Assembly (NCBI GenBank): GCA_963664325.2
Contig: CAXXDQ010000006.1
Location: 102,815 to 166,814 of the forward strand
DNA from: Desulfomonilia bacterium
GTDB taxonomy: Bacteria > Desulfobacterota > Desulfomonilia > UBA1062
DNA: 64,000 nt
Direction of reading: 5' to 3'
The position numbers and the translations under genes were made by a program. The notes under the pieces were generated by a model. It was not told where the DNA came from and made no database searches. It was given only the letters and a program-made list of their open reading frames with translations. Every line of letters begins with the position of its first letter. The stretch's first letter is position 1. Below are positions 47,604-61,897 of the stretch, one piece after another.

Positions 47604-49472
47604 CTACTCCAAACCCGATTCCTGAGAAAAGCCTATCGGAACAAAAGACAGATCCCTGATGCCAAACGGTTTTTTCTCTAGGGCATATGACAGGCCAACC
47701 AGGAAATCGTTTATTCCCTTAAGATAATCCCTTCCGTGCGCTTTTCCGAGAGACTGCATTTCCCGGTAGCAGGAGCAGGCTTCTTCGTGCCTTCCCATCA
47801 GGTCCAGGCATTGTCCCGCAAGCAGCCTGTGCAGGGCCAGTTCGTTCGGGGACTGGAGAAGCGTGAATGTTGCTTTAATGCGCTTGAGGGCCTCGGTGTA
47901 TCTGCCTGCATGGATGAGAAGGCGTGCGGCCATTTCGTTGTATACAGGCTCTCCCGGGTCAGCGGCTGCCGCATTGTCAAGATGGGCAAGTATCATCCGG
48001 GTATCGTCGGGATTCTGTTCAAACAGGGCGAAAGCCTGCATGTATTCATAAAGTCCACGTTCATGTGAGGTGTCCTGCCAATTGTAGCCGGGGAGAACCG
48101 GCGTGTCCAATTCGGATATGCCTCCTGCAAGTTCGGCTGCAAGATCAAAGCCGGTATATGTGTTGTTGCATGCGGGCTCTTTTCCTGTTGCAACCCAGAA
48201 CAAGCCGCGTGCAGGCATGAAGACCGCCGAGGTGACATTGTTTGCGGCACAAACGCCTATGCCGGTGCTGCGCTCGGTCTTTGTAACGGTATCATAATGA
48301 TCGCCCATGATTTCAGCCGCCTTTGCGGGAGTGATATGCCCCCGCGACTGAGCGATCAGGGCATCCAGTCTTGACAGCCGCCCGAAGAGGTCCCGCATCA
48401 CCAGATTATGACGGGCCATTAGGTCCCTTGGCTGGAGCTCATTCGATGTCGCGCAGTTTGTGAGGCGCACGTAATCGTCCTTCATGGGGACAATTCCCAG
48501 AACATTGCTGACGGCCTCCATTGCCACGGCCTTGCGGCTCTTTCCGTCTGCGACGACAAGGCCGAAACTTCCGCATACAGGCGAGCGCTTTACAATCTCC
48601 ACCGCTTCATCGATGGAGGATGCCTTTCTCATGATCTCGTTTTCAAACACGGTGAACGAAATACCCTGGGGTTTAGCCCCATCGAATGCCATAAAGTGTC
48701 CGCCCACCACGAGCCCCTTCGCATTCATCGCCGTATTGCACTTTATGAGCCCGGCCGTATCCACACGCACATAGGCAATGCCGCCCCGGGGCTTGTAGAA
48801 AAACAGGACCTGGTTGTTCATCCACCGGCCCTGTCCCGCATAATCGGTGTTGCGTCCGAACACCAGTTCACCGTCCGGTGTGTTCGGACCGGCCGCCGCA
48901 AAGCTTGAACATTCCGGTGAGACGACAAGTTTGCCCGCCCTCGCCTTGATCTGGCGTACCGCCATTATCATGGTCAGGTCTGACTTGAAATTGGCGATGA
49001 ATATTTCACGGTATGGTATTCCGCATCCGTCGGAGATGCCCTTGAGTTCTTCGAGATATTCACGCGGGGTGGCGCGTTCAATGGGAGAGAAAATCGAAAT
49101 CTCAAGGTACTTGGTGAGCAGCCAGCGGAGCCATGCCGGTTTTTTCCGGTACTCCAGAGTGTGTCCTATCGGATCGGAAAATACCGGCACCACTCCGTTT
49201 CTGATTTCGTCACGCAGCAGGGCGCCGTGCTGATAGCCCATCTCGTAAGGCGAGCCCTCCAGATGAAGCATGATTGTCCCTTCTTTGCGCTCTCTCCATG
49301 CCGTACCGAGATACTGCCGGGCACCTTTTTGTTCAAACGCCTGGGTGTTGATGCCTGTGCTTTCCTGACGGTAACGGTTCCCAGAGCCGAGGGTGCGAGC
49401 AGTGAAAAGCATGAAGCCGGAAATGATTATAAGCAGGACAGTTACCAGAAGGATCATGCAAACCTTTTTCAT
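47604..49472 (-). CDS. C45/acid-ceramidase-like Ntn hydrolase with C-terminal TPRs
   Basis: N-terminal anchor; GSPYEMGYQHG, ECSSFAA (nucleophile Cys), GRNTDY, MNAKGL; TPR-like helices. Confidence 0.8.
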   Translation of the reverse strand: MKKVCMILLVTVLLIIISGFMLFTARTLGSGNRYRQESTGINTQAFEQKGARQYLGTAWRERKEGTIMLHLEGSPYEMGYQHGALLRDEIRNGVVPVFSDPIGHTLEYRKKPAWLRWLLTKYLEISIFSPIERATPREYLEELKGISDGCGIPYREIFIANFKSDLTMIMAVRQIKARAGKLVVSPECSSFAAAGPNTPDGELVFGRNTDYAGQGRWMNNQVLFFYKPRGGIAYVRVDTAGLIKCNTAMNAKGLVVGGHFMAFDGAKPQGISFTVFENEIMRKASSIDEAVEIVKRSPVCGSFGLVVADGKSRKAVAMEAVSNVLGIVPMKDDYVRLTNCATSNELQPRDLMARHNLVMRDLFGRLSRLDALIAQSRGHITPAKAAEIMGDHYDTVTKTERSTGIGVCAANNVTSAVFMPARGLFWVATGKEPACNNTYTGFDLAAELAGGISELDTPVLPGYNWQDTSHERGLYEYMQAFALFEQNPDDTRMILAHLDNAAAADPGEPVYNEMAARLLIHAGRYTEALKRIKATFTLLQSPNELALHRLLAGQCLDLMGRHEEACSCYREMQSLGKAHGRDYLKGINDFLVGLSYALEKKPFGIRDLSFVPIGFSQESGLE

Positions 49473-49617
49473 ATATTCCCCAATGAGTTTATTTTTATCG
49501 GTACAAAAAAGTAAACCAGGCGGTAACAAACCTGGATTACTGTTATGAACATGCCTGCAATTAAGCAGTAGATAAAATTCACATCGCAGAAGCTGAAAAC
49601 TTCAGGTGGTTCAAACC

Positions 49618-50184
49618 TTAATTGAACTTAACCTGCGGCACCGCCTTCTCGGCCTCCGGGATGTCGAAATACTGGGCCTCTTTCACACCGGCCCAGCTGG
49701 CGAAGATGCGTCCGAAGAAAGATTTGACATAGGAATTCAGAGCCATGACCGCATCGTTATATCTTTTGCGTTCGACGGAAATGCGGTTTTCCGTGCCTTC
49801 AAGACTATCCTGGAGCTTCAGGAATGATTCGTTTGCTTTGAGTTCCGGGTAGCGCTCCTGGAGCAACAGGAGCCTGGAAATCGCACCTTCAAAATCCCCG
49901 GCGGCCTTTGCCTTCTCGTTGACAGACTGTGCAGAGAAATAGGATTTACGGGCATTTGCAAGCGATTCGAAAACCCCTTTTTCGTGCGCGGCATAACCTT
50001 TAACCGTCTCTACAAGATTGGGAATAAGGTCAAAACGTCGCTTGAGCTGCGTCTCGACCTGGGCCCACTGCGCTTTTACCGCTTCGTTCATGCGGATGGC
50101 TTTGTTGTATTGGGAAATGGCCGCTCCCCCGAAGACTACGATAATGCCGATTATTATTCCAACAACGATTAATGCCTTTTTCAT
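49618..50184 (-). CDS. lemA: LemA family protein
   Basis: W..V...L.RR.DLIPNLV, E.YP.LKAN, LEGTENRI.V.R.RYN. Confidence 0.95.
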   Translation of the reverse strand: MKKALIVVGIIIGIIVVFGGAAISQYNKAIRMNEAVKAQWAQVETQLKRRFDLIPNLVETVKGYAAHEKGVFESLANARKSYFSAQSVNEKAKAAGDFEGAISRLLLLQERYPELKANESFLKLQDSLEGTENRISVERKRYNDAVMALNSYVKSFFGRIFASWAGVKEAQYFDIPEAEKAVPQVKFN

Positions 50185-50204
50185 TTATCCTCCCTGTTGG
50201 TAAG

Positions 50205-50335
<131 letters not shown>

Positions 50336-50347
50336 CTTGTTTTTATA

Positions 50348-51115
50348 TTACCAGCCGCCGGAGGCGCCGCCTCCGCCAAAGCCGCCTCCGCCGCCGCTGA
50401 AACCGCCTCCGAATCCTCCGCTGCCTCCGAAGCCCCCGCCGCCGATCCATATGCCTCCGGTACGCCTGCCGAATGAGCGCCGTCCGAAAGGTGAAAGAAA
50501 CCTGCTGAGAATGAAGAAGGCCGCAAAAAGGAGAATAAAAGCGGAAAAACCGGTTTTATTCCTGCCTCTTGAACGGCTGACGGGATTCACAGGCGCAGCA
50601 CCTTCAACCTCGGTTCCATAGGCCTTGGCGACGGTTCCTATTATGGCGTTTGAGGCATCGTTGATCCCGCCGGAAAAGTCACCGCGTTTGAATTTAGGCA
50701 CCATATACTGCCTGCCGATTGTCCCTGCAAGGCTGTCCGGCATTACTGATTCAAGGCCGTACCCGACCTCGATGCGGTATTTCCTGTCATCTACCGCAAT
50801 AACAAAGAGGATTCCGTTGTCTTTCCCTTTCTGGCCTATGCCCCATTTCTGTGCGCGCTCGATAGAGTATTCTTCAATAGGGACCCCCTCGGTCGAAGGC
50901 ACGGTAAGTACGACCATTTGTATCCCGGTTTTCTGATCAAGCAGTTTCAGTCTGGAAGAAAGCCCGGCCTTTGTAGAGGGGTCAATTATGCCAGCCCTGT
51001 CTTCAACATAGTCCGACGGCGGACCTTCAAGGGCAAAGAGCGGAACAACAGCTGCGATAAGCAGCAGAAGACCGGCAGCAGGCAAAATAAAGGCTGGGTT
51101 ACACCCGGATTTCAT
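50348..51115 (-). CDS. TPM domain protein
   Basis: WGIGQKGKDNG, RIEVGYGLE, Gly-rich GGGFGGGGASGGW end. Confidence 0.92.
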   Translation of the reverse strand: MKSGCNPAFILPAAGLLLLIAAVVPLFALEGPPSDYVEDRAGIIDPSTKAGLSSRLKLLDQKTGIQMVVLTVPSTEGVPIEEYSIERAQKWGIGQKGKDNGILFVIAVDDRKYRIEVGYGLESVMPDSLAGTIGRQYMVPKFKRGDFSGGINDASNAIIGTVAKAYGTEVEGAAPVNPVSRSRGRNKTGFSAFILLFAAFFILSRFLSPFGRRSFGRRTGGIWIGGGGFGGSGGFGGGFSGGGGGFGGGGASGGW

Positions 51116-51875
51116 CTACCAACAATGACAGCTGATGCGTCAGGTCATAGAGCTTTTTAAACAGTTCGCGCAATTCTTCCGGTTTGAGCGCTGTCTTTTT
51201 CTGTGATCGCAGGTCGTGAATCTGCTTCAGACAATCGAGTTTCACCCTCAGTTGCGATTCGATGGCATTCAGCACGGATGACCTTTCAACCGGCGCAATG
51301 CTACCTGTCATGAACAGGATCGATCTGAGTATCGGATAAAAACCCGATGATGAATGTATTATCAGATTGAGCAGAAACTCCTTATCGCCCGAGGCCGATA
51401 TATACCCCCTGCTTAGCTGGACAAGTTTTGCTTTCAACTCCCTTTCGCATTGAAGCCTGAGCATGGGTTTTTCAATATCGATGCGCGAGAAAATTTCAGT
51501 TCCGTAAATTGTCTTGTGGATGAGCTTTATTTCAAGGAATTCTATCGGAAAGACATCTACAGAACGGCCCAGATATTCATTTGTGATCACAAGAGGGGCG
51601 CGCACCTTTTTCTTTCCGAATTTTTTCCCGAACCCGGCAAGAGAATCGAGGAAATCCTGGCCCAGTTTTTCCATCACAATAACCGTATTAATGTCCGAGA
51701 TGCCTGGTATATAGTCCTGGGTAAGAATGCTTCCGGCTAGGACAACCGATTCAAGGTCATTTCCGCCGATTCTGATTATGTCATCCGCAAATTCCCTGAT
51801 GACGGGCAGCGCATTGGCAGGGAGGCCGTCAAGATTCATCATTGTTTTATCATTCATGGCATCGGAATTTATCAC
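51099..51875 (-). CDS. nucleotidyltransferase-fold protein (lemA/TPM-associated)
   Basis: GS...Y..G.SDIN; DVFPIEFLEI; LRLQCEREL. Confidence 0.7.
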   Translation of the reverse strand: MINSDAMNDKTMMNLDGLPANALPVIREFADDIIRIGGNDLESVVLAGSILTQDYIPGISDINTVIVMEKLGQDFLDSLAGFGKKFGKKKVRAPLVITNEYLGRSVDVFPIEFLEIKLIHKTIYGTEIFSRIDIEKPMLRLQCERELKAKLVQLSRGYISASGDKEFLLNLIIHSSSGFYPILRSILFMTGSIAPVERSSVLNAIESQLRVKLDCLKQIHDLRSQKKTALKPEELRELFKKLYDLTHQLSLLVDEIRV

Positions 51876-51963
51876 GAGAAGTATATCTTATCCAGAGTAA
51901 AACATTCTCAGGCTTTACCATTCAATACTTGACACCTGAAAAATATGTCTTCAAAGAGTAATC

Positions 51964-53217
51964 ATGGTCATTGGAAAAGGATTGGCGGATGCTTTTCTGA
52001 CGAATGAAGATATTGAGGAAATTTTTCAGCAGGCCTTCGTCAAATGGGACATGACTGGGCAAAAGGTGCTTGTTATTGTCCCGGATTCGACCCGGACCCT
52101 GCCGATGCCTCTTATCTTCAGGCTTATTCATGACAGGCTTGCTTCAAAGGCAAAATCGATAGATTATCTGATTGCATCCGGCACTTCCGCACCCGTGACT
52201 TTGGAGGATATATACAAAAACTTCGGCGTTACGCCGAGGCAGCTTGCAGGAATTTATAAGGATGTAAACATATTTACACACCGGTGGAACCTTCCAGAGA
52301 ATTATGCAACACTTGGGACGATAAGCGGGGAGGAGACTGACGGCCTGACGTCAGGTATGCTGAATACCGAAATTCCAGTGAGGTTCAACCGAAGGGTGCT
52401 CAATTATGATATGATCATTGTCCTGGAGCCAGTCGCCCCCCATGAACTGGCGGGATTTTCAGGCGGCAACAAACTCTTCGTTTCCGGCATAGGGAGCCCG
52501 GAGGTCATGAATTTTACAAGCTGGCTCGGGGCGCTGCATTTAAGACGTGACATTACAGGCAGGACGCACACATCGGTCAGGTCGATAATCGACTTGGCGG
52601 CCTCATTCATTCCTGCTTCTAAACTTTATATCTGTCCCGTGGCCAGGGAACATGGAGTAAACGGGCTTTTCATCGGCGAGCACAACGATGCGTGGGAAAA
52701 GGCGGCCGAACTCTCAGCCCGGGTGCACATCGTATATTCGGAAACAAGGTATTCAAGGGTTGTTGCAGTTCTGCCCGAAAGCTGTCCGGATCTCTGGGCC
52801 GGTGTAAAAGGTCTGCAGATGGTTGAGCAGATCGTAAAGGATGACGGAGAGGTGATAATCTATGCCCCGCATATAAAGGGACTTTCCTCGGTTCATGGCA
52901 TGCTCCTGGAACAGATAGGTTATCACGTAAGGGATTATTTTTTAAAAAGGTGGGATAATTACAAAGGCTATCCCCTGATGGTTCTGGCGCATTCAACACT
53001 CATGAAACCCGACGGGAGATATGAAGAGGGTAAAGAACATCCGCGCATAGCGGCCACACTTGCAACAGGGATAAGCCCTCATGCCTGCAGAAAGATAAAT
53101 GTAAGCTATTCAGACCCTTCCGGGATAAATCCGGATAATTTAAAGCCAGGACAAAACGGGGATCTGTTAATTATTCCAAACGCAGGAGAGATTTTATACT
53201 CTGTAAGGGATAAGTAG
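51964..53217 (+). CDS. LarA (lactate racemase) superfamily protein with degenerate active site
   Basis: VPDSTRT, PHELAGFSGGNK; conserved His positions read GTS and FTSW. Confidence 0.8.
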   Translation: MVIGKGLADAFLTNEDIEEIFQQAFVKWDMTGQKVLVIVPDSTRTLPMPLIFRLIHDRLASKAKSIDYLIASGTSAPVTLEDIYKNFGVTPRQLAGIYKDVNIFTHRWNLPENYATLGTISGEETDGLTSGMLNTEIPVRFNRRVLNYDMIIVLEPVAPHELAGFSGGNKLFVSGIGSPEVMNFTSWLGALHLRRDITGRTHTSVRSIIDLAASFIPASKLYICPVAREHGVNGLFIGEHNDAWEKAAELSARVHIVYSETRYSRVVAVLPESCPDLWAGVKGLQMVEQIVKDDGEVIIYAPHIKGLSSVHGMLLEQIGYHVRDYFLKRWDNYKGYPLMVLAHSTLMKPDGRYEEGKEHPRIAATLATGISPHACRKINVSYSDPSGINPDNLKPGQNGDLLIIPNAGEILYSVRDK

Positions 53218-53266: not shown

Positions 53267-56200
53267 CTACCTTTTTCTTAAAGCCGCTACAGGCAGAGCC
53301 ATCAGCGTCATCAGTGCGATAAGCATCATGCCGAGGATGTTTCCTGAGCCGGCTGTATCAATGAAGCAGCCGCCGCCACCGCCTCCTCCACCGCCGCTCG
53401 CATCAGTCGGAGTATCCGTAGTTCCGCCGCTGCCCGGGGTGTCTGCGGGCGGAGTTCCGGTTACGGCGACAAACGGGGACAGGGAACTTACCGAAGCGCT
53501 TATCGTCCTGTTAACGGTGTCGATTTTTTTGTTTGTTTCTTCAAGACGCCATACGCCGCCGACAAAGTGAAGTATGTTGAGGCTGGAGGTGGAGGTGCCT
53601 TCGTCATACTGGATTGTGACGGTCACCGTTTTACCGCTTGCAACCTGGTCTGCGCCCAGATCGAAATCGTATTCCTTTGATGCTGTCGTCGCCCAGGCAG
53701 GCAGTGCCGCATTTGTTTCCGGCGCAATCAGGTGGCCTTTGGCGTTCATTCTTATGCCTGCAGCTTCAGAATCAACAGCCGCCTCGGCGTCAGTCTTGTT
53801 GACGTCAACCACTGTCTGGCCGTCACTGTTCTGGTCATCTATTGCACCCGGCTCGGCATAAAGGCTGCTTGCATCGCCGCCGCCCATGAAGACCGAACCG
53901 CCTGTGAATGAATTGACCATGCCCTGGTTTGAACTGATAACGCTCAGGTCAAGCGTCCAGGTCTGCTGAGCGAGCGTGGAAGATACTCCGTAATGCGCTG
54001 CAATGGTGAACGACACAAGGCTTTCTCCTGCTGCCTGGGTGTAGGTGAAGGAGAGCATGGATTTGTCATTGCTCAGCATTGCATTGCTGATGGTTCCTGC
54101 ACCGTTTGTGCTGATTATGCCTGACGCGGATTCATCCATCAGCCTGTTCGTGCTGAATATCATGACATTGACAGTCGTACCGGATTTTCCTGCCGTCAGC
54201 ATGAATGTCGGTGTGCTTTCCTGCATTACCGCATTGAATGAGATGGCCTCATCTGCTGATGAAGGTGTTACACCGGGAGACTGGACATAAATCTGTCCCG
54301 GACCTTTGTCGCCCGGTGATACTAGGGCCACCCTGTACTCGACTCCGGTCTTGAGCCCCTCGATTGAATAAGCGCTTATCTCGTTCGTAGCCGGGTCGGT
54401 TGTGAATTTTCCGAATACCAGTTCCTGGGTTATCGGGTCCATTGCAACCGGTATATCGAGATCATTTGTCGTCGGGAATGATCCATCAGGTTTTGTTACG
54501 GTACCGCTGACCGTTGCGCCATTTTCAAGTGCTATGTCGAGTGTTGTCCCACCTGCGGCGATTTCAAGATCGTTGTTTACATAGGTCGTGCAGCCCGTAC
54601 TTAAAACCATGACGCGGTATTTTCCGGGAACGATATGGCCCACGCGGAAAGTAGTGGTGATTCCTGCCGACGGTGCACTCATGGCCTGTATGCCGCCCAT
54701 CGGGTCACTGTAGGGAACACCCTTTTTCTGGAGCAGGATAAAGGCTGAGGGCATGCTCATTTCACCCATCTTGAAAGGCGGCGCGAAACTCTTCCCGACA
54801 GGAATTGTTATTGTACCGCTGAAGGATGCGTTCGTTGCCGTAAGTGTAAAGTTGGCATTCGCTGTTCCCGGGGCTATGTTATAAAGGGTTTCCTCGCCGT
54901 AACCGCAAGGCTGTCTCGAAAAGTCCCATGATTCGGGCCTGAGGGCTGCATTTACTTCGTAATAATCAACATCCGGGTCAATGCCTGAGATGCTGTAATA
55001 ACCGTCCGGACCGCTTTTTGCCTCTTGAGCCGACCTGGAGAACTTGCTGTCCATAGGCTCGGCAGATACAGGGATGTTGGCGAGCGGATTGCCTGATGCA
55101 TCTTTAAGATACCCGGCTATTGTTGCGCCCTGCTTCATCTTGATTGTTCCGATGTCTATTGTATTCTGGGCCGTGACGTCTTCATCGGTTATCTTTATGC
55201 CGTATTTCGAAACACTGGCATAATTAAGCGTTGATCTGCTGTTTATCTTGTAAGTTACGCTCAGCAGGTATGTACCGGCCGGCAGGTTGGTCAGAGAGAA
55301 TTTCTTTGTAGTCTCACTAAACGCTGATGAATCCCATTCGCTTGACTTGTATGAGCCGTCAACCCACGGCACGGCTTCACAGGTCACAAGTGCGCTTGAC
55401 GTAATGGGAGAACCGGAAGCTGAATCAACGATCTTGCCTGATATCGATGCGCCCTTGGCAAGGGTCATCGTCGTTGCAACATCGGCATTGCCTATCGTAA
55501 TTGATTTTGCGTTCATGACGTATTCCTGTGAGAAGAACCTGACCGTGTAATTACCAGATTTCAAATGCTCATAGGTTACCGTCGCCGAAGCGGCTCCTTC
55601 ATCGAGTTCCTCCATGTGCTGGCCACCCATGCCGCCGCCCATGCTGCCGCAGATAAACTGGTACGTGTAGTCATCACCCATCGGATTCTCGCCCTTGAAC
55701 AGCTGGAGTCCGCCCAGGAATCTTGCGCAGGGGCTGCCTCCGCATTCATTGGGTTCAACACCGGCAGGGAAGTTGACAGTGACGGTGGCGCTGTAGCCGG
55801 ATTCGACTGAGAGGTTAACACTGGAATTGCCATCGACAACTTTTATTATCCTGTCACAGGCGAATTCAGCATCCATGCTTGCAAGGGTTATAACATAAGT
55901 GCCGCTGCCCAGCTTGAGGCTGAAGCTGCCGTCTATAATCGGCATCGACTTGACATTGCCGCCGGATATGCCTTCTTTACCGTCCATCATTGCGAAGCTG
56001 ATCGGTATTGCGACCGCTATTGTTTTCGAGCCTGTAAGAAGTCCTTCCGGATCATCAACGGTGCCAGTAACGGTATATGGTGTTTCGAGGTCAATATTCG
56101 TAATTGTCGACTGGCCGTTAACGACAAAGACCATCCTTGAGAACAGGGCCACATTGCCTGTTGGCAAATCCATTCCCGAATAGGTACCTATTTCATCAGC

Positions 56201-58357
56201 CACAATCATGTATTCACCTGTGCTGAGGTTGCCTATTGAGAACGAACCGTCTGCATCCGGACTAACAGCGGAAATGCCGGAAACATCCCCCCACATCGGC
56301 GTGGCATTGATCTTGATTTTGGTATAATCGACACCAACCGGCCAGGTGACTGTACCTGTAACGATTCCGGAATAGGGCGTCATGGTAATATCGACATCGG
56401 TCGTGCCTGCATGTATCCATGTTTCCCATGGTTTGCCGCCGTTGACTGTTGTTTCCGTATTATCAAGCCATGACCACAACTGGTAGTCCCTTTCATCAAG
56501 GCCGGCCAGATGGAAGGCCGCCGATGTGGCGCCCGCAGCTATCATGACGCTCTGGCCATGCCAGGCAGCGTCGTTCGGGGAATTTGCATTGATATTCAAA
56601 TACCTGATCTGGTCCGATGCCGAAACATTGATGGTTCCTGAAATAGAAAGCCCTGCGTCCAGTGTTATCGGCTCCATTATTATGTCAAGGACTGAAACCA
56701 GGATGTCGTTTTCAACGGACTGCTTGTATCCATCGGCGTTAATGTAACAGGTGTAATTACCCGGCGCGATTGCTGGAACGAAGAAACTGCCTGACGAATC
56801 CCCTTCCTGCACATTGCCCCATCCCCATGCTTCAACCGACGGATTGGAGGTTTCCTGGAGACGCACATTGATGTTTGTATAGCTTGCCGAAGGGCCTGGC
56901 AGAAGGACTGTTCCGGAGAGCGACAATGCCTTTGTGAGTTCAACTGTCAGGGCTGTATCCGGTGTTCCATCGTCGTTTGAATCTACATCGGCAAGGGTAA
57001 ATGAGGTGTTTCCGGTATAAGACATTCTTATTTCACGCTGAAGGAGAGGGTCCCAGGTTACAAATTCAGCCGTTATCCTGCCGCTCCATATCTTGTTCGG
57101 CTCGAGACTTTCCATGTTGAGTATGATTGAGCCGTGGTCTTCACCTGAAGAAATTTGGGCATTGCCCTGTGCCCATCCGGGTCCCTGGGTATTATGCGCC
57201 TCTGCGCGCATACCAAGTTTCATATCGGGAGGTGTTCCTGCCGGCGGTTCAAAGGCTGAAGGCAGGATGGCATTTATCTGGACTGTAATCGCCGGCTGCA
57301 TGTCCATATTTTTTGTTCCGGACTCGCCGTTTGCCAAAGTGACATTTGAATTCGGTCCCGGATTGTAGAAATATCCGTTTTTCTCGGCGTTGACATTGTA
57401 CGTGCCGTCTTTTAATCCTGAAATTACATATTGCCCCTGGGCATTTGTCGTTGCCTCTCCCCATGCATTGGGGCCGCCTGCATTCACCCTGACGCCCGCG
57501 ACAGGCGAACTGTTGCATGTAACGATACCAGATATCGTCTGTGTTAAAACAGATACGCTGATATCATTGTTTACAAGTGTCCCGCTCGCGAACTGATTAT
57601 TGAGCTTGTCTTCGATTATCCAGACCTTGTATGTGCCGTTGGGAAGAACCCTCCCCTGTGAGTCACGGCCTTCAAAGTTCATGTTAACGGGAGGCTGCCC
57701 CTGGTTTATCCAGGTTCTGAACGTCCAGTCCTTCCCGGACATCCCCTGCTGGCTCCAGTCCGTAATAATGTCTGCTGTTTCGTTATTGTTTGTATCTACG
57801 ACTATTGCGTATTCATGCCCGCCGGCGCCTGTGAAGGAAAACTGCAGGAAGTCATTCTGCCCGTCGTTATTGGGAGTTATTGTTACAGGGAAGGAGGTGT
57901 ATTCAGTTCCGCCCATCAGGATTTTTACGTTTGATATTCCGCTCGGTGACTGCTGACCGGCATTGACCGTCACTGTCAGGAAGGTTCCGAAAACCTGAGG
58001 GGCTGTCATCGGGTCTTCAACTATGAAAACCTTGTAAATTCCAGTGGGAACGCCTCCGCCGGACCATGGAACAGTGGTCGCAGAGCTGACCGAGGTAAAG
58101 GTCTGACCTGATATCAGCATGTCACCCTGATCCGCTCCATTGTTGAGATTTTGATCGACAACAACTCCGAATGTAGTGCCCGGATCGCTGATAACGTAGA
58201 TTTGAATGGGAGTTCCATTCTGTGCCACAGAAGCATCCAGAGTGCCAGGTGAGCCTACATAGACATTGGTAACCGCTGCAAATAAACCGGCTGATCCCAG
58301 CAGTAAGAAAACCACCACCAGAAGTACTGATTTGGAAATCAACTTTTGTGCCTTCAT
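53267..58357 (-). CDS. large surface protein (1696 aa): FlgD-like and carboxypeptidase-regulatory-like Ig domains, G9-CFI + TM + RKR tail
   Basis: Signal peptide; ITPNNDGQND...EGRDSQGRVLPNGTY; repeated ISG.V / GxY.V motifs; SVSSLSPF; C-terminal sorting signal. Confidence 0.85.
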   Translation of the reverse strand: MKAQKLISKSVLLVVVFLLLGSAGLFAAVTNVYVGSPGTLDASVAQNGTPIQIYVISDPGTTFGVVVDQNLNNGADQGDMLISGQTFTSVSSATTVPWSGGGVPTGIYKVFIVEDPMTAPQVFGTFLTVTVNAGQQSPSGISNVKILMGGTEYTSFPVTITPNNDGQNDFLQFSFTGAGGHEYAIVVDTNNNETADIITDWSQQGMSGKDWTFRTWINQGQPPVNMNFEGRDSQGRVLPNGTYKVWIIEDKLNNQFASGTLVNNDISVSVLTQTISGIVTCNSSPVAGVRVNAGGPNAWGEATTNAQGQYVISGLKDGTYNVNAEKNGYFYNPGPNSNVTLANGESGTKNMDMQPAITVQINAILPSAFEPPAGTPPDMKLGMRAEAHNTQGPGWAQGNAQISSGEDHGSIILNMESLEPNKIWSGRITAEFVTWDPLLQREIRMSYTGNTSFTLADVDSNDDGTPDTALTVELTKALSLSGTVLLPGPSASYTNINVRLQETSNPSVEAWGWGNVQEGDSSGSFFVPAIAPGNYTCYINADGYKQSVENDILVSVLDIIMEPITLDAGLSISGTINVSASDQIRYLNINANSPNDAAWHGQSVMIAAGATSAAFHLAGLDERDYQLWSWLDNTETTVNGGKPWETWIHAGTTDVDITMTPYSGIVTGTVTWPVGVDYTKIKINATPMWGDVSGISAVSPDADGSFSIGNLSTGEYMIVADEIGTYSGMDLPTGNVALFSRMVFVVNGQSTITNIDLETPYTVTGTVDDPEGLLTGSKTIAVAIPISFAMMDGKEGISGGNVKSMPIIDGSFSLKLGSGTYVITLASMDAEFACDRIIKVVDGNSSVNLSVESGYSATVTVNFPAGVEPNECGGSPCARFLGGLQLFKGENPMGDDYTYQFICGSMGGGMGGQHMEELDEGAASATVTYEHLKSGNYTVRFFSQEYVMNAKSITIGNADVATTMTLAKGASISGKIVDSASGSPITSSALVTCEAVPWVDGSYKSSEWDSSAFSETTKKFSLTNLPAGTYLLSVTYKINSRSTLNYASVSKYGIKITDEDVTAQNTIDIGTIKMKQGATIAGYLKDASGNPLANIPVSAEPMDSKFSRSAQEAKSGPDGYYSISGIDPDVDYYEVNAALRPESWDFSRQPCGYGEETLYNIAPGTANANFTLTATNASFSGTITIPVGKSFAPPFKMGEMSMPSAFILLQKKGVPYSDPMGGIQAMSAPSAGITTTFRVGHIVPGKYRVMVLSTGCTTYVNNDLEIAAGGTTLDIALENGATVSGTVTKPDGSFPTTNDLDIPVAMDPITQELVFGKFTTDPATNEISAYSIEGLKTGVEYRVALVSPGDKGPGQIYVQSPGVTPSSADEAISFNAVMQESTPTFMLTAGKSGTTVNVMIFSTNRLMDESASGIISTNGAGTISNAMLSNDKSMLSFTYTQAAGESLVSFTIAAHYGVSSTLAQQTWTLDLSVISSNQGMVNSFTGGSVFMGGGDASSLYAEPGAIDDQNSDGQTVVDVNKTDAEAAVDSEAAGIRMNAKGHLIAPETNAALPAWATTASKEYDFDLGADQVASGKTVTVTIQYDEGTSTSSLNILHFVGGVWRLEETNKKIDTVNRTISASVSSLSPFVAVTGTPPADTPGSGGTTDTPTDASGGGGGGGGGCFIDTAGSGNILGMMLIALMTLMALPVAALRKR

Positions 58358-59076
58358 CGAACTCCTCCCTGCATAAATTTTTGCCTCGATACTATGGCCT
58401 GCTGCTGAAGCTGATAGAGCATGGCTGAATTGGCCATGGCCTTTTTTTCCGCTGTTTCTTTTGTCATGACTGGCGTGGACTGATTTATTGATGAATAGAA
58501 GCCTTGAGGAGGTGCCATTGCATATACTGCTTTAGACGGGTCTGGCCTGTAACCGGGAACCCTGAATCCCATGGCCGTCTCTTTATATGGCATTCCTGAA
58601 GCATTCAGTTTGCAGTCTTTATTATAATAGGACTGCATCCAGTCTTTTGGTGGGATTGTCTGATAATTTGTTTTTGCCATGCCATTTGATGTTTTGTGGT
58701 TTCCTGAAGATGATTTGACGATAGTCTGATTTTCAGATGACGGCAGGCTGTCGCGCGCCTTCTTTATTGTCGGAATCTTTACATATTCACGGACCCCGCT
58801 CTTGAATACCATTATCTTTACTACATTATCGCCTTCATAATAAATCGCATAACTGTAGCCCTTGACGTGCTTTTGCAGCATGTCCCTCGGTTCCAAACCG
58901 GTGGTGGTATCAGGGACATCGACAGCCTCTTCATTTTCAATGCCCTTTTCAATATAGATTTCTGCGTTGTATATGCCGGAAATGTCCGACAAGGCCTGCT
59001 TTACCGTCACGGCATGGGCCTGCAGGGTAACTGCAAAAAGAAAAGGGGATAAAAAAATAACTATTTTCGCGCGCAT
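58354..59076 (-). CDS. secreted hypothetical protein with an STN/secretin-N0-like domain
   Basis: Signal peptide; VTVKQALSDIS...EIYI...L...GYSYAIYY; overlaps the giant gene start by 4 nt. Confidence 0.6.
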   Translation of the reverse strand: MRAKIVIFLSPFLFAVTLQAHAVTVKQALSDISGIYNAEIYIEKGIENEEAVDVPDTTTGLEPRDMLQKHVKGYSYAIYYEGDNVVKIMVFKSGVREYVKIPTIKKARDSLPSSENQTIVKSSSGNHKTSNGMAKTNYQTIPPKDWMQSYYNKDCKLNASGMPYKETAMGFRVPGYRPDPSKAVYAMAPPQGFYSSINQSTPVMTKETAEKKAMANSAMLYQLQQQAIVSRQKFMQGGVR

Positions 59077-59238: not shown

Positions 59239-59267
59239 TTGACCTGGAACAGGAAACAAAATAGAAT
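59239..59267 (+). promoter_or_regulatory. sigma70-type promoter
   Basis: TTGACC-N17-TAGAAT upstream of the GPI-PLD-like gene. Confidence 0.55.
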
Positions 59268-59359: not shown

Positions 59360-61897
59360 ATGAGGAAATCTTATTTCGGCATCTTGGTTGTTATTGCCCT
59401 TGTTTTATTGTCCATAAAAAGCCTGTCTGCAGCCGGAATGGCCACCCACAGCGATGTAAGCGAGCGGGCTGCCGCCACGTTTTATTCAACCGCATATCCC
59501 GAATATAACGGGTTTGTCCAGAAGTACAGGGACGCAATCCAGGCCGGGTGCAGATTCCCTGACTGGGGTTACTGGACGGGATATCAGGATGCGTCGGAAG
59601 ACGCCCACTGGTACCCTTTCATAAAGGCCGCTGCTAACCTCTATCACAGCAGGTACAGGCAGGATATAAATTCCCCTGACTCAAAAAAGGCGGAAAAAGC
59701 AGGCCGCTACGCCGCTTTCGTATTAGGCCTCATGTGCCACCATAAGGCCGATGTTGCATGGCATGATCGAGCTAACGGTTTTGTTGAAAATATGGGGCAG
59801 CAGAATTTTTACCAAAGTTTTGACAATGCCCATCAGATAGCTGATTTCGGCGGGGACATAGCATGCGCACACGAATTCGACATGTCCTGGATTCAGGATA
59901 GGATTTGGGTTCCTGCCGATGACATGGCAGAGATTTACCATGATAAATATCCAGAGATAACCTCACAATTTATAGCTAATGCGAACAGGCTTATGTTTAT
60001 AGCCACCCAGGCCGAGACAAACGCCGGTTATCTTTTATTTTCCATACCGGCAGGAAAATCAGTTTTCCTTGTAGATGAGCTGCAGGACTTCTTTACGGGC
60101 GGCCTTGACGACATGTCCGTGAAGACTCTATGGGGGTGGGATGAGGCGATAGAGTGGATGGAAAACGGCGTGGCGCCTGAACCTTTGACATTTGGGCTGC
60201 AGAATTCTGCTGATGGGAACAGCCTTGTTTCAATGGCCGGCAGCAGTCTTGACACAAAGGGGATCAATGTAAATGAAACGGATGTTGCGGGCGGTGTTAT
60301 GTTGAGCCTTGAAAAGGGCGCAGAAAAAACCGCTGCAACGGGAATTTCCACAAAACCGGAACAGGCAGATTTTATGGCAACAGGCGCAAAGGCATATTCA
60401 TATGCCGGGAAAAGCCTGAGCAAAGGCGATTTTAATAATGACGGGATTGATGACCTTGTAATCGGCGCACCCGGTTATGAAACGCCCGGACACCCCGACC
60501 TTGGGGCAGTGTATGTGGTCTACGGCAGAAAGGATGCAAAAACAGATTTTGCCTCCGGGATGGATTTAAACAGTGCGGACGTTGTTTTAACGGGTAAGGT
60601 GGACGGCGGCAGGTTCGGCTGGGCTGTTACAGTCCTGGACTTCAATCTTGACGGATACGATGACCTCGTTGTTTCAGCCCCTCTGGAAGGAGCCCGTGAG
60701 AGCCTTTATACCGGGAAGGTCTATGTCTTTTCGGGTTCAAATGCAGGTATCGCTAAAGAACCGTCCATTATTATTAATGATTCGGCAGAGACCGCCAATC
60801 TCGGGTTCAGCCTTGCGACAGGCGACCTGAACGGTGACGGGAACCCGGACCTTGTCATAGGTGCACCTTTCAGGGGGGTGATAACTTATGCTGGAGACGG
60901 TAAAATCCTTAGCGAACAGTGCGGGAGTGTTGCGATATTCAACTCGTCGAAAAACAGGATAGACAATAGCATATTGAGCCTTGATGATGCATGGCGCGTA
61001 TTAAACGGCGAACAGGAATATTCATGGTTCGGTTATCATGTGGAGGTCCTCAAAAATCCGGACGGTATGCTCATTGTCGGCGCGCCTGCATACAATTCCG
61101 ACAAGCAGGATGTCGGAAGGATTTACGGTTATAGTCTGACAGGACTGCGAACCGGTCAGGCCGGCATGATACCGAAATTCACGCTGAGCGGTGAAGACGA
61201 GTTCGAAGGCCTCGGGTCTTCATTTGCGGCAGGCGACCCGTATGGAACGGGAGAGACGGTCCTTGCGGTATCTTCACCGGCAAAAGACCTGATGCTGTTC
61301 AGCCGGTTTTTACTGCTCGATCAGACTGGATCCGTGCTGCTGGTCCGGGTATCTTCACTTGATGATGACCTTAAAGTAGCTGATGTTGAACCCGTTGCAG
61401 TCATAAACGGCTCAAGACCCTTTTCAAGATATGGCGCCAGGGTCGCCTTTGCCGACTTCAATGCCGACGGGATTGACGATTTGTGGATCAGCGAGACCAT
61501 GAGGGCAATCGATTATAAACTCGAATCAGGGGCCGTGTATTACTTTAAAGGCGGGAAAACCATGCCTGCCGGAACAATCCTCTCATCAATGGCCAAGCCG
61601 GATATGACAATTGCTGAAGGCGGCGGAAAGTCGCAGTTCGGCTCATGTTTCGGCTTCCTTGATCTCAATGCCGATGACGCGCTGGATGCGGCCATCTCGG
61701 CACCCAGGGCAACCGGCCCGGACGGCAGGCTTGAGGGCGCGGTCTATATAATGCTCTCGCCGGACGGCGGCAATCCCGGGCCTGTACCCGTTGATCCCGA
61801 TGGTCCTGCAGGAGGGGAAGGCGCAACCGGGGCCGACAATCCATCATCAAGCGACGGCAGCGGAAGCATCTGTTTTGTTAAGACCTGCGTGTTATAA
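59360..61897 (+). CDS. GPI-specific phospholipase D (GPLD1)-like secreted protein with 7 FG-GAP repeats and a CFV tail
   Basis: Zn-PLC-like domain TH, AG.FPD, E..HW.PF, H..ADV.WH, AH..D.GGD, GGLDDM; FG-GAP repeats; ends GSGSI-CFVKTCVL. Confidence 0.85.
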   Translation: MRKSYFGILVVIALVLLSIKSLSAAGMATHSDVSERAAATFYSTAYPEYNGFVQKYRDAIQAGCRFPDWGYWTGYQDASEDAHWYPFIKAAANLYHSRYRQDINSPDSKKAEKAGRYAAFVLGLMCHHKADVAWHDRANGFVENMGQQNFYQSFDNAHQIADFGGDIACAHEFDMSWIQDRIWVPADDMAEIYHDKYPEITSQFIANANRLMFIATQAETNAGYLLFSIPAGKSVFLVDELQDFFTGGLDDMSVKTLWGWDEAIEWMENGVAPEPLTFGLQNSADGNSLVSMAGSSLDTKGINVNETDVAGGVMLSLEKGAEKTAATGISTKPEQADFMATGAKAYSYAGKSLSKGDFNNDGIDDLVIGAPGYETPGHPDLGAVYVVYGRKDAKTDFASGMDLNSADVVLTGKVDGGRFGWAVTVLDFNLDGYDDLVVSAPLEGARESLYTGKVYVFSGSNAGIAKEPSIIINDSAETANLGFSLATGDLNGDGNPDLVIGAPFRGVITYAGDGKILSEQCGSVAIFNSSKNRIDNSILSLDDAWRVLNGEQEYSWFGYHVEVLKNPDGMLIVGAPAYNSDKQDVGRIYGYSLTGLRTGQAGMIPKFTLSGEDEFEGLGSSFAAGDPYGTGETVLAVSSPAKDLMLFSRFLLLDQTGSVLLVRVSSLDDDLKVADVEPVAVINGSRPFSRYGARVAFADFNADGIDDLWISETMRAIDYKLESGAVYYFKGGKTMPAGTILSSMAKPDMTIAEGGGKSQFGSCFGFLDLNADDALDAAISAPRATGPDGRLEGAVYIMLSPDGGNPGPVPVDPDGPAGGEGATGADNPSSSDGSGSICFVKTCVL

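Follow-up and report, generated by a model that had tools for sequence, protein, structure and literature searches.

The window analysed here, a stretch of 64,000 nucleotides from an uncultured Desulfomonilia bacterium of the sulfate-reducer type, carries at 59360-61897 on the forward strand an intact open reading frame (ATG start, 845 aa, TAA stop) identified by the ORF listing, by its translation and by alignment with frog GPLD1, the GPI-specific phospholipase D. The predicted protein begins with a signal peptide (aa 1–25; 59360-59434), read from the translation as a basic start, a hydrophobic core and small residues followed by the conserved G-M-A-T-H, with pLDDT below 50 at residues 1–24; secretion by way of this N-terminal peptide, as in the GPLD1 family, is predicted. 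It is followed on the same strand by a catalytic domain of the Zn-dependent phospholipase C (PLC) fold (aa 26–272; 59435-60175; PF00882 and fold matches) and by an interdomain linker (60176-60361), in which the AlphaFold model has pLDDT below 50 at aa 276–300 and which contains a conserved β-hairpin (aa 304–317, strands 304–309 and 312–317) with G312 invariant in the 13 bacterial and animal sequences aligned. Next come a seven-bladed FG-GAP β-propeller (aa 335–800; 60362-61759; Pfam, AlphaFold and Foldseek), a Pro/Gly/Ser-rich linker with no counterpart in animal homologs (aa 801–830; 61760-61849; pLDDT below 50 from residue 803) and a CFI-box tail (Cys-Phe-Val plus 5 residues; 61850-61894; NF041763 match). 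The AlphaFold model of the whole protein has pLDDT 80.4 and pTM 0.85. The protein contains 7 cysteines, versus 11–14 in most animal sequences compared. Upstream of the gene, a consensus scan gave a weak sigma-70-like promoter candidate (59239-59267, forward strand; hexamers matching at 10 of 12 positions, in a scan with 10 sites found versus 4.1 expected). Read-through of the stop codon into a membrane helix was considered and rejected, the downstream frame having no hydrophobic stretch by eye, and the conservation of an antisense frame (60028-60423) is explained only by its overlap with the GPLD1-like gene.

The GPLD1-like gene is a bacterial chromosomal gene. Its nearest named relatives beyond its own clade are eukaryotic, as would be expected if eukaryotic DNA had been misbinned or misassembled into a bacterial genome, but this explanation can be given practically no credence: the contig is 166,814 bases long and bears bacterial housekeeping genes (gltX, aconitase and carB within the window), the frame has no introns, its GC content (0.515) is ordinary for the genome (0.479; carB 0.516), the gene recurs in all four genomes of the genus at 72–73% identity and also in a second genus belonging to that family, and its product ends in a bacterial sorting motif common to 13 other genes. 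The deep bacterial clade to which it belongs comprises about 40 clusters at 50% identity, from MAGs and metagenomes, and is rare in the phylum (4 of 401 sampled genomes). The locus comparison revealed no conserved neighbour gene or operon partner. The gene for a surface protein of 1696 aa with CarboxypepD_reg repeats (53267-58357, reverse strand; Pfam and translated C-terminus), which ends with a long signal made of a Gly run, Cys-Phe-Ile, a hydrophobic helix and Arg-Lys-Arg (NF041763, 13.2 bits), is absent from the same place in a genome of the same genus (locus L008), as is a gene for 240 aa at 58354-59076. A secreted metallophosphoesterase of 520 aa encoded at 4041-5603 on the forward strand (Pfam Metallophos, TIGR03767/03768) has the same short CFI tail as the GPLD1-like protein.

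The comparison with vertebrate GPLD1 points to collinear, full-length homology. BLASTP aligned residues 23–797 with residues 22–834 of the frog protein (31% identity, 851 columns, E 2e-104), and the matches to animal GPLD1-like proteins covered 89–94% of the query at 30–31% identity, with E between 6e-89 and 2e-83. Against rodent, macaque and frog GPLD1, 34% of the 239 N-domain positions and 33–34% of the 434 propeller positions are identical. The N-domain alone retrieved 523 cluster representatives at E≤1e-3 in a phmmer search, the N-domains of GPLD1 proteins reaching E-values as low as 1e-35; nearly all of the best 150 of these 523 are 700–950 aa long, and those seen with a name in this set of 150 belong to eukaryotic GPLD1 rather than to generic Zn-PLC/FG-GAP fusions devoid of GPLD1-specific similarity. 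The initial annotation, made by reading the sequence, had set motifs of the window protein beside mammalian ones; the former are all present in the translation and the latter turned out to be essentially right, as Macaca and Acomys GPLD1 carry STH, SE..THWTPF, SHMVAD.SWH, AHSAGDFGGD and KSPFLVEQFQEYFLGGLDDM. It had also pointed to a common length and domain order. Both agree (845 aa versus 835–847 aa in vertebrates), but the agreement in length is partly a coincidence, because the bacterial protein lacks the eukaryotic insertions and is longer by about 45 aa at its C-terminus.

In the quick PMSF tree (IQ-TREE, unrooted), the window protein lies in a bacterial clade of 25 rows placed among eukaryotic clades of the GPLD1 family (KEGG K01127) with SH-aLRT 99; the clade was recovered in 914 of 1000 interim bootstrap trees, a figure that rises to 999 when a single unlabelled row is allowed to join, and a specific grouping of bacteria with Holozoa in 0 of 1000. 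Being unrooted, the tree is compatible with transfer between bacteria and eukaryotes in either direction. Of ten representatives of unlabelled clusters one is named (Dracoamoeba), and the unlabelled clades U1–U3, U5 and U6 are probably eukaryotic, judging by their cysteine pattern, their untagged C-termini and two rows sourced from EukProt (P0163 of clade U4 and P0269 outside the tree). The bacterial clade is equally far from vertebrate GPLD1 (34% identity) and from its own distant members (35–38%). The alignment, the profile search, the tree and the fold thus bear out the proposal of a bacterial full-length GPLD1 homolog with its catalytic histidines, and we consider it nearly certain that the window gene is a bacterial member of this family. 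The analysis shows that the supposedly eukaryotic GPLD1 family has an old bacterial branch. The view of the enzyme as eukaryotic, adopted in the initial annotation, agrees with the literature searched, in which no paper on bacterial GPLD1 was found, but not with the databases, where JGI already names metagenome proteins of 72% identity 'glycosylphosphatidylinositol phospholipase D'.

The Pfam search identified Zn_dep_PLPC (PF00882) at residues 29–182 (E 1.3e-11; 45.2 bits, cut-off 26.8). When the N-domain model was compared by fold (VIA-align wide), Zn-PLCs and S1/P1-type nucleases took the first six places (Z 8.5 to 5.4), the Zn-PLCs scoring 8.5, 7.9 (Listeria PLC) and 7.4 (B. cereus PLC), and the next, unrelated fold follows at Z 4.7; the window protein therefore has at its N-terminus, as does GPLD1, a catalytic domain of the Zn-dependent PLC type. 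Sequence-level similarity to the Zn-dependent PLCs proper was not found, a profile of 10 bacterial N-domains having matched no chain among the PDB sequences at E≤10, and Foldseek searches with the N-domain model returned no structure at E≤1e-3. The weak Foldseek rows include B. cereus PLC, alpha-toxin and S1 nuclease. Ten residues (H30, D68, E80, H83, W84, H127, D131, H135, H158 and D162) are invariant in the 13 bacterial and animal sequences, and the eight His and Asp residues among them are kept also in mammals, a bird, the frog, Capsaspora and a fungus, pairing in the alignment with vertebrate H29, D68, H88, H125, D129, H133, H158 and D162. In the sequence alignment the order and spacing of these eight residues appear PLC-like, resembling the ligands of the trinuclear Zn site as numbered in B. 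cereus PLC. The activity of mouse GPLD1 reportedly needs His29, His125, His133 and His158, a result ascribed to Raikwar et al. 2005. These four, whose conservation had been anticipated in the initial annotation, correspond to H30, H127, H135 and H158 of the window protein, with frog, chicken and rodent (Acomys) GPLD1 having His at exactly the four vertebrate positions; the bacterial protein thus retains the histidine set of the GPLD1 family, and it is probably catalytically active. The segment after the active-site Asp reads F-P-D-W-G-Y in bacteria, as in fungi and the unlabelled clades, while Holozoa have Y-P-D-A-F/Y-Y and a Cys-containing insert.

The C-terminal half of the protein matches FG-GAP in Pfam with E 4.2e-37. 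Only 3 stretches are scored individually, so that the seven repeats counted in the initial annotation are found not as Pfam repeats but as seven blades, evident from the AlphaFold model and from its Foldseek match to integrin alpha propellers (alphaIIb: E 4e-20, TM 0.70 on target). The PDB sequence search with the full protein identified integrin alpha as well (best E 2.5e-16), and a motif scan located calcium-type Dx[DN]xDG motifs at residues 357, 427, 489 and 699. The window protein has, as GPLD1 does, a seven-bladed FG-GAP propeller with integrin-type Ca sites; it has none of the thigh, calf and transmembrane helix that make an integrin alpha subunit, with which it shares only the propeller. 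FG-GAP propellers are common in bacterial adhesins, and a comparison limited to that of the window protein finds many bacterial FG-GAP proteins that score as well as GPLD1 does (P0018: 32% identity, 327 bits). A non-catalytic surface adhesin built on a retained GPLD1 scaffold would fit these matches, but we regard it as highly improbable, since the eight residues of metal-ligand type are invariant in bacteria, animals and fungi, which is unexpected for a dead enzyme.

What had been described as a Cys tail is indeed present and corresponds to a recognised motif with a putative sorting role, the CFI-box (NCBIfam NF041763; G000:C6:164664-164702, window 61850-61888), with 16.1 bits against a cut-off of 15.9, the best match in the genome; its C-terminal position after a Gly/Ser linker likewise suggests a CFI-box. 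Because the model is short (14 positions; E-value 0.08 for one genome) and also matches control genomes (11 of 14 at E≤10, one over the cut-off), the identity of the tail rests mainly on the recurrence of the pattern in the genome: the same short tail ends 13 other proteins with signal peptides, making 14 short forms, and there are 2 long forms. Ten of the 13 were scanned with Pfam and are mostly predicted hydrolases, comprising 2 metallophosphoesterases, 2 S15 peptidases, 2 papain-type proteases, 1 fn3 protein, 1 CarboxypepD_reg protein, 1 protein without a Pfam family and 1 FG-GAP protein with a subtilase match below the cut-off. The tripartite CFI-box-CTERM model (NF041770) gave no match in the window protein, which ends 5 residues after Cys-Phe-Val and has neither the membrane helix nor the basic end that follow the motif in that form. 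P0131 of the bacterial GPLD1 clade carries the full NF041770 domain (69.3 bits). Regular expressions revealed Cys-containing C-terminal tags in 26 of the 41 rows of this clade (19 of GCGC type and 7 CFI), compared with 0 of 22 in the Holozoa-plus clade.

Another function to consider is that of a sheddase: the enzyme would release surface proteins of the bacterium itself that are held by a lipid on the Cys of their CFI-box or GCGC-type tails, in a bacterial analogue of GPI anchoring. The 16 CFI-tailed proteins of the genome and the frequency of Cys tags in the clade, together with the one further row that has the full NF041770 domain, would be in keeping with such a function. It is nonetheless quite improbable: the enzyme is itself tagged, and the type of tag varies with the host, as expected of sorting cargo and not of a processing enzyme; the gene is unlinked to other CFI genes at the same-genus locus L008; and its occurrence in 4 of 401 genomes of the phylum is far rarer than one would expect if it belonged to the core of the sorting machinery. 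The search for myo-inositol-1-phosphate synthase also bears on this question. Neither PF01658 nor PF07994 was found in the source genome, which is 95.6% complete, and PF01658 was not found in the other 3 genomes of the genus or in G216; among the other carriers it occurs in one of five (G245). The physiological context of GPLD1, a host making GPI or inositol lipids, was accordingly not recovered here, which is a matter of context and not of sequence. The lack of a synthase match is compatible with uptake of inositol or with another route. Since no inositol-phosphate synthase was found, surface-displayed scavenging of foreign glycosyl-inositol lipids is favoured over an endogenous sheddase; of the two functions put forward in the initial annotation, the first is thus the one that these genomes and the enzyme's own sorting tail would suggest.

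The following scheme can be proposed. The GPLD1-like protein would be exported by its Sec signal peptide and, through the CFI-box, probably sorted to or retained at the cell surface, like the rest of the CFI-tagged set, which consists mostly of hydrolases. The N-domain, with a Zn cluster of the phospholipase C/P1 nuclease type, would cut a lipid phosphodiester. The Ca-binding seven-bladed propeller may have the part assumed for that of mammalian GPLD1, presenting either the membrane surface or the head group of the glycolipid. The likeliest substrates would be foreign glycosyl-inositol phospholipids (protist or fungal GPI anchors and free GPIs, and inositol-phosphoceramides), whose cleavage on the inositol side would yield phosphatidic acid or ceramide phosphate and release the anchored protein or glycan for uptake. 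Catalytic activity, PLD-type bond specificity, an inositol-lipid substrate, a surface location and a nutritional role are all inferred. To the explanation as a whole, i.e. a surface-sorted enzyme of the GPLD1 family scavenging foreign inositol lipids, we assign a probability of about 0.5; the assignment of inositol-glycolipid scavenging as its role is tentative, at slightly under an even chance. The same fold also gives phospholipases C preferring PC and nucleases, and sequence cannot fix the substrate or the bond.

Or might the protein be a secreted phospholipase (C or D) of broad range, or another phosphodiesterase, acting on non-inositol lipids of dead or neighbouring cells, its likeness to GPLD1 reflecting ancestry and not substrate? 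This is a less likely alternative, though one to be reckoned with. The N-domain shares its fold with Zn-PLCs (Listeria and B. cereus, at the Z-scores given above) and nucleases, the searched genomes of the genus yielded no inositol-phosphate synthase, the tail is common to general degradative enzymes, including two metallophosphoesterases, and an identity to vertebrate GPLD1 hardly below that to the clade's own distant members leaves room for a change of substrate. Yet the N-domain, even as a profile, has no sequence match to the solved bacterial PLCs and matches the GPLD1 N-domains (E down to 1e-35). Moreover, retention of the propeller and of the hairpin in the linker, in an unchanged domain order, suggests selection on the whole GPI-PLD machine.

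Methanogenic archaea have glucosaminyl-inositol lipids. An unlikely but broader reading of the scavenging enzyme would make the bacterial clade an ancient sister, possibly the donor, of eukaryotic GPLD1; anaerobic bacteria of the Desulfobacterota type would use its surface-displayed members to strip off or harvest the GPI-anchored coats and glycosyl-inositol lipids of protists and fungi, whether living or dead, and perhaps archaeal lipids too. If true, it would mean a bacterial route of attack on, or scavenging from, a hallmark eukaryotic (or archaeal) membrane anchor, and a tractable prokaryotic model for an enzyme without a solved structure; PDB sequence searches found no GPLD1 structure (the full protein retrieved integrins only, the N-domain profile nothing). 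GPLD1 is studied as a mammalian serum enzyme, in connection with metabolism, with the shedding of GPI anchors and with the effects of exercise on cognition. The intron-free, low-cysteine bacterial orthologs may express and crystallise more easily, and a diverse bacterial branch with all the catalytic residues reopens the question of the origin of eukaryotic GPLD1. The findings also suggest that glycolipids of the GPI type are processed by some anaerobic bacteria in which no synthesis of such lipids was found, and they tie GPLD1 to the uncharacterised CFI-box and GCGC-type tags, for the study of which it offers an easily assayed cargo.

Among the known systems, vertebrate GPLD1 (EC 3.1.4.50) resembles the window protein most fully, with a signal peptide, a Zn-PLC-fold domain, a linker and a seven-bladed FG-GAP propeller with Dx[DN]xDG motifs in the same order, 31–34% identity end to end, and His 29, 125, 133 and 158 kept together with the Asp ligands. 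It differs in its mature N-terminus, which is Cys-Gly in vertebrates and Ala-Gly-Met in the bacterial protein; the latter has F-P-D-W-G-Y without the Cys-containing insert, lacks the Cys-bearing inserts of the propeller, adds the Pro/Gly/Ser linker and CFI-box tail (~45 aa) and comes from a host not found to make inositol phosphate. The fungal and protist homologs (chytrids, Mucoromycota, Capsaspora, Dracoamoeba, Apiculatamorpha and EukProt transcripts) have the same architecture and belong to one family tree with it, and the fungi and unlabelled clades share the F-P-D-W-G-Y motif, but these homologs end directly after the last blade, have a Cys after that motif and form separate clades.

The bacterial Zn-PLCs (B. 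cereus PC-PLC, Listeria PlcB and the N-domain of clostridial alpha-toxin) and the S1/P1 nucleases share with the window protein the all-helical fold and the Pfam family (PF00882), and its order and spacing of His and Asp may resemble those of the trinuclear Zn site; unlike it, they have no propeller and cleave on the glycerol side (PLC) or cut nucleic acids, and their solved members show no detectable sequence similarity to it, even with a profile. The bacterial PI-specific phospholipases C are unrelated to the GPLD1-type enzyme in fold and mechanism. They provide a functional precedent for bacterial attack on GPI anchors, because these secreted enzymes of Bacillus, Staphylococcus and Listeria release GPI-anchored proteins (PMC10216265). 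According to the same paper, their cut is at the C position and anchors with an acylated inositol resist them. The integrin alpha head is likewise a seven-bladed FG-GAP propeller with calcium motifs, but the bacterial protein lacks the thigh, calf and transmembrane parts and is an enzyme whose C-terminal half the propeller makes up. Finally, proteins with CFI-box (NF041763) or CFI-box-CTERM (NF041770) ends share the Gly/Ser-rich linker followed by Cys-Phe-Ile/Val near the C-terminus; unlike the CFI-box-CTERM proteins, the window protein and 13 others stop 5–8 residues past the motif, without a membrane helix or basic end, while the full tripartite form is present in two proteins of the genome and in P0131 of the bacterial GPLD1 clade.

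The GPLD1-like gene (59360–61897, + strand) runs uninterrupted for 845 codons from ATG to TAA and is preceded, a few bases 5' of the ATG, by a purine-rich stretch. The public gene call (entry P0002, 837 aa) begins at a TTG located 8 codons downstream; the ATG at 59360 is the better fit to the Met-Arg-Lys beginning conserved in the orthologs. The translated product has a basic, hydrophobic N-terminus; further on come repeats of the FG-GAP kind, then a segment of Pro, Gly and Ser, and finally Cys-Phe-Val with five closing residues. Pfam identified a Zn_dep_PLPC domain (aa 29–182, E-value 1.3e-11, over the cut-off) and FG-GAP repeats (E-value 4.2e-37), to which the NCBIfam scan added nothing specific; four calcium-type motifs Dx[DN]xDG occur at 357, 427, 489 and 699. 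The translation and Pfam thus confirm the frame and domain layout of the initial annotation, and all the window motifs quoted there were found in the translation.

The word-indexed search scored 7999 candidates and retrieved 926 proteins at E<=1e-5. The nearest relatives are three 841-aa proteins from metagenomes or MAGs (71–72% identity), two of them named 'glycosylphosphatidylinositol phospholipase D' by JGI, followed by a second tier of metagenome and MAG proteins (32–41% identity), by animal 'GPLD1-like' proteins (starfish, sea urchin, sponge and clam; 30–31% identity over 89–94% of the query, E-values 6e-89 to 2e-83) and then by many fungal GPLD1 entries. A true vertebrate GPLD1 ortholog, from the frog Ascaphus, was obtained through cluster look-ups, and BLASTP aligned residues 23–797 of our protein with its residues 22–834 (31% identity, E-value 2e-104), an end-to-end match that bears out the proposed relationship. 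A profile search also retrieved GPLD1 of birds, reptiles, amphibians and mammals. Compared with the rodent, macaque and frog enzymes, the N-domain shows 34% identity (239 positions) and the propeller 33–34% (434 positions), and the mammalian motifs cited in the initial annotation proved to be near these actual sequences.

The alignment of 13 sequences (9 bacterial and 4 animal) revealed invariant residues H30, D68, E80, H83, W84, H127, D131, H135, H158 and D162. Work of Raikwar et al. from 2005 is reported to have found four His residues, at positions 29, 125, 133 and 158, essential for the activity of mouse GPI-PLD. Frog, chicken and rodent Acomys GPLD1 have His at exactly these positions, which align with H30, H127, H135 and H158, so the predicted conservation of all four holds. 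The invariance of the metal ligands also argues against the protein being a dead adhesin, which we consider very improbable. In the full-length AlphaFold model (pLDDT 80.4, pTM 0.85) the N-domain is helical and is followed by a short hairpin and 7 blades of four strands each; the propeller matches integrin alpha heads in Foldseek (E-value 4e-20, TM 0.70 on the target side of the match). The N-domain modelled separately (pLDDT 73) gave no Foldseek match at E<=1e-3; the exhaustive VIA-align search, in which Z below 8 is weak by the tool's own note, ranked first C. absonum alpha-toxin (Z 8.5), Listeria PLC (7.9) and B. cereus PLC (7.4), then three S1/P1-type nucleases (6.0–5.4), with an unrelated structure in rank seven (4.7). 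We base the fold assignment of this domain on the coherence of the top six matches together with the Pfam Zn_dep_PLPC match. Membership of the protein in the GPLD1 family is, in our view, nearly certain.

The gene is bacterial: the same window holds genes for glutamyl-tRNA synthetase, aconitase and carbamoyl-phosphate synthase, and its GC content (0.515) is close to that of carB (0.516; genome 0.479). That it represents contamination has a negligible probability. The three phylum-level carriers are identical in DNA to loci that bear the label Thermodesulfobacteriota, and one family-level carrier is a locus labelled Deltaproteobacteria; the host is taken to be a Desulfobacterota-type bacterium. 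NCBI names two same-genus loci (L007, L008) 'uncultured Bacteriovoracaceae bacterium', which conflicts with the Thermodesulfobacteriota or Deltaproteobacteria labels in the same phylum and family (L011, L013, L017, L009); an error in one of them is likely.

No conserved neighbor of the gene was found across the compared loci. In L008, LemA, TPM and LarA-N-like genes directly precede it. The window region 47604–53217 comprises genes for an acyl-CoA:6-APA acyltransferase-like protein, LemA, a TPM-domain phosphatase, an unknown 258-aa protein and a LarA-N-like protein; from LemA onward this block is syntenic with L008 (76–91% protein identity). Here the LarA-N-like gene is separated from the GPLD1-like gene by two overlapping genes, which encode a 1696-aa surface protein with CarboxypepD_reg repeats (53267–58357, − strand), ending in a Gly9 run, Cys-Phe-Ile, a membrane helix and Arg-Lys-Arg, and, at its end overlapped by the former, a 240-aa secreted protein without a Pfam family (58354–59076, − strand). 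As this pair is missing from the same place in L008, it looks like an insertion beside the GPLD1-like gene. Two K319L-like PKD-domain proteins (21985–23343, + strand, 452 aa; 31689–33881, + strand, 730 aa) strengthen the impression that this organism secretes or displays many proteins.

Used as the sole query in phmmer, the N-domain matched 523 of 1.84 billion representatives at E<=1e-3 (270 at <=1e-10, 48 at <=1e-30); most of the 150 matches listed are 700–950 aa long, hence the N-domain is almost always accompanied by the propeller. In a FastTree phylogeny of 156 rows our protein falls within a 41-row clade (support 99) that includes all sequences known to derive from bacterial MAGs. A quick IQ-TREE analysis (site-mixture model, 62 rows) united the 25 bacterial rows, the target among them, in a single clade (SH-aLRT 99) among the eukaryotic GPLD1 clades, in line with the bacterial homolog initially proposed; this clade, a clade of Holozoa, Amoebozoa and Provora (99) and several unlabelled clades all arise from one unresolved fork, with fungi and one unlabelled clade separated by two well-supported branches. 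Among 1000 interim bootstrap trees from a careful search, bacteria form one group in 914 and one including the unlabelled metagenome row P0222 in a further 85, and none of the 1000 unites bacteria and the Holozoa clade as one group. The lowest identities inside the bacterial clade (35–38%) are about the same as those to vertebrate GPLD1, and its stem is short (0.13, vs. end branches of ~0.8–1.1), so the split is old; the tree is unrooted and gives no donor/recipient direction.

The bacterial clade is rare among prokaryotes. The one-genome-per-species scan, which relied on two peptide patterns, found 79 distinct loci, 67 of them with a propeller match only and at least 12 with the N-domain covered; these 12 are without exception MAGs, and their labels read Thermodesulfobacteriota, Deltaproteobacteria, 'Bacteriovoracaceae' or plain 'bacterium'. 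The gene is present in 5 of 41 related genomes (all 4 of the genus and one other genus of the family), in none of the 16 genomes of the sister family, and in 4 of 401 genomes sampled evenly from the phylum.

The Cys-containing ending recurs in this genome as a Gly/Ser-rich linker, Cys-Phe-Ile/Val/Met and 4–8 mostly small or hydrophobic residues before the stop. Among 5185 frames of >=150 aa, 19 regular-expression matches include 14 convincing short tails, all in proteins with a signal peptide (e.g. at 4041–5603, + strand; further examples at L086–L097); two long forms, one of them the 1696-aa neighbor, extend further, through a hydrophobic helix to basic terminal residues. The tail of our protein is the genome's best match to NF041763, the 14-position NCBIfam model 'CFI-box putative sorting motif' (16.1 bits, cut-off 15.9). 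Because so short a model finds matches in 11 of 14 control genomes too (E<=10), the recurrence of the ending counts for more. NCBIfam also has a model of the long form, NF041770 'CFI-box-CTERM'; the short tail lacks a membrane helix. Ten of the 13 other short-tail proteins were scanned against Pfam, nine of these also against NCBIfam, and most are hydrolases: two metallophosphoesterases, two S15 X-Pro peptidases and two papain-type proteases, the remaining four being an FG-GAP protein whose subtilase match is weak and below cut-off, one protein each with fn3 and CarboxypepD_reg, and one without a Pfam family.

By regular expressions, the 41-row clade shows 19 endings of a Gly-Cys-Gly-Cys type, 7 of the CFI type and 15 of neither, the last including some truncated rows and P0131 with a full NF041770 domain (69.3 bits). 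Where the Gly-Cys-Gly-Cys motif occurs (among others in P0016, P0125, P0129, P0132, P0135, P0136; loci L010, L012, L014–L016), it lies no more than ~35 residues from the C-terminus; in most of these proteins it closes the chain, preceded by a long poly-Asp linker. No NCBIfam model matched it in the two proteins scanned (P0016, P0136), and this ending may represent a further uncharacterised type of C-terminal tag. By the same type of search, a Cys tag is absent from all 22 rows of the Holozoa-plus clade. As the tag type varies across the bacterial clade, these enzymes wear the Cys tag of their host, like cargo. The initial annotation had also offered a sheddase for a bacterial lipid anchor; that the enzyme releases the host's own Cys-tagged proteins is disfavored and highly improbable, since it bears the tag itself, occurs in few genomes, shows no linkage to other tagged genes and resides in a host in which inositol-phosphate synthesis was not found.

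Myo-inositol-1-phosphate synthase (PF01658, PF07994) was not found in this genome (95.6% complete; controls scored as expected), nor PF01658 in the three other genomes of the genus (93–97% complete) or in the carrier G216; only G245, one of five other carriers, possesses it. An endogenous inositol lipid is therefore unlikely as a clade-wide substrate, although the host may instead import inositol; the substrate is probably foreign to the host. We tentatively propose, with a probability of about 0.45, that the protein is a surface enzyme cleaving or scavenging glycosyl-inositol phospholipids. It would be exported by Sec and placed on the cell surface in a CFI-box-dependent manner, where a Zn cluster on H30, D68, H83, H127, D131, H135, H158 and D162 would attack the phosphodiester of a substrate held against the calcium-loaded propeller. 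Inositol-side cleavage, as in GPLD1, would yield phosphatidic acid or ceramide phosphate and a freed protein or glycan, and these products would feed the co-displayed peptidases and phosphoesterases. Or perhaps it is a broad-range phospholipase acting on ordinary lipids? The fold is versatile and the protein is distant from the characterised enzymes, yet we consider this rather unlikely and prefer the action on glycosyl-inositol phospholipids.

Full-text searches, covering mainly the open literature, found no paper describing a bacterial GPLD1, none on the CFI-box and none on GPI-PLD with prokaryotes and phylogeny; work on GPLD1 with horizontal gene transfer is, by title and abstract, apparently unrelated. 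A term search of one paper, which deals with bacterial integrin-type propellers, found no mention of phospholipases, and another paper notes the calcium motifs of the GPLD1 propeller. Databases already annotate bacterial GPLD1 by orthology (the JGI names), hence the bacterial protein is the known GPLD1 machine in a new setting: a deep bacterial clade, added bacterial sorting tags and probably a foreign substrate.
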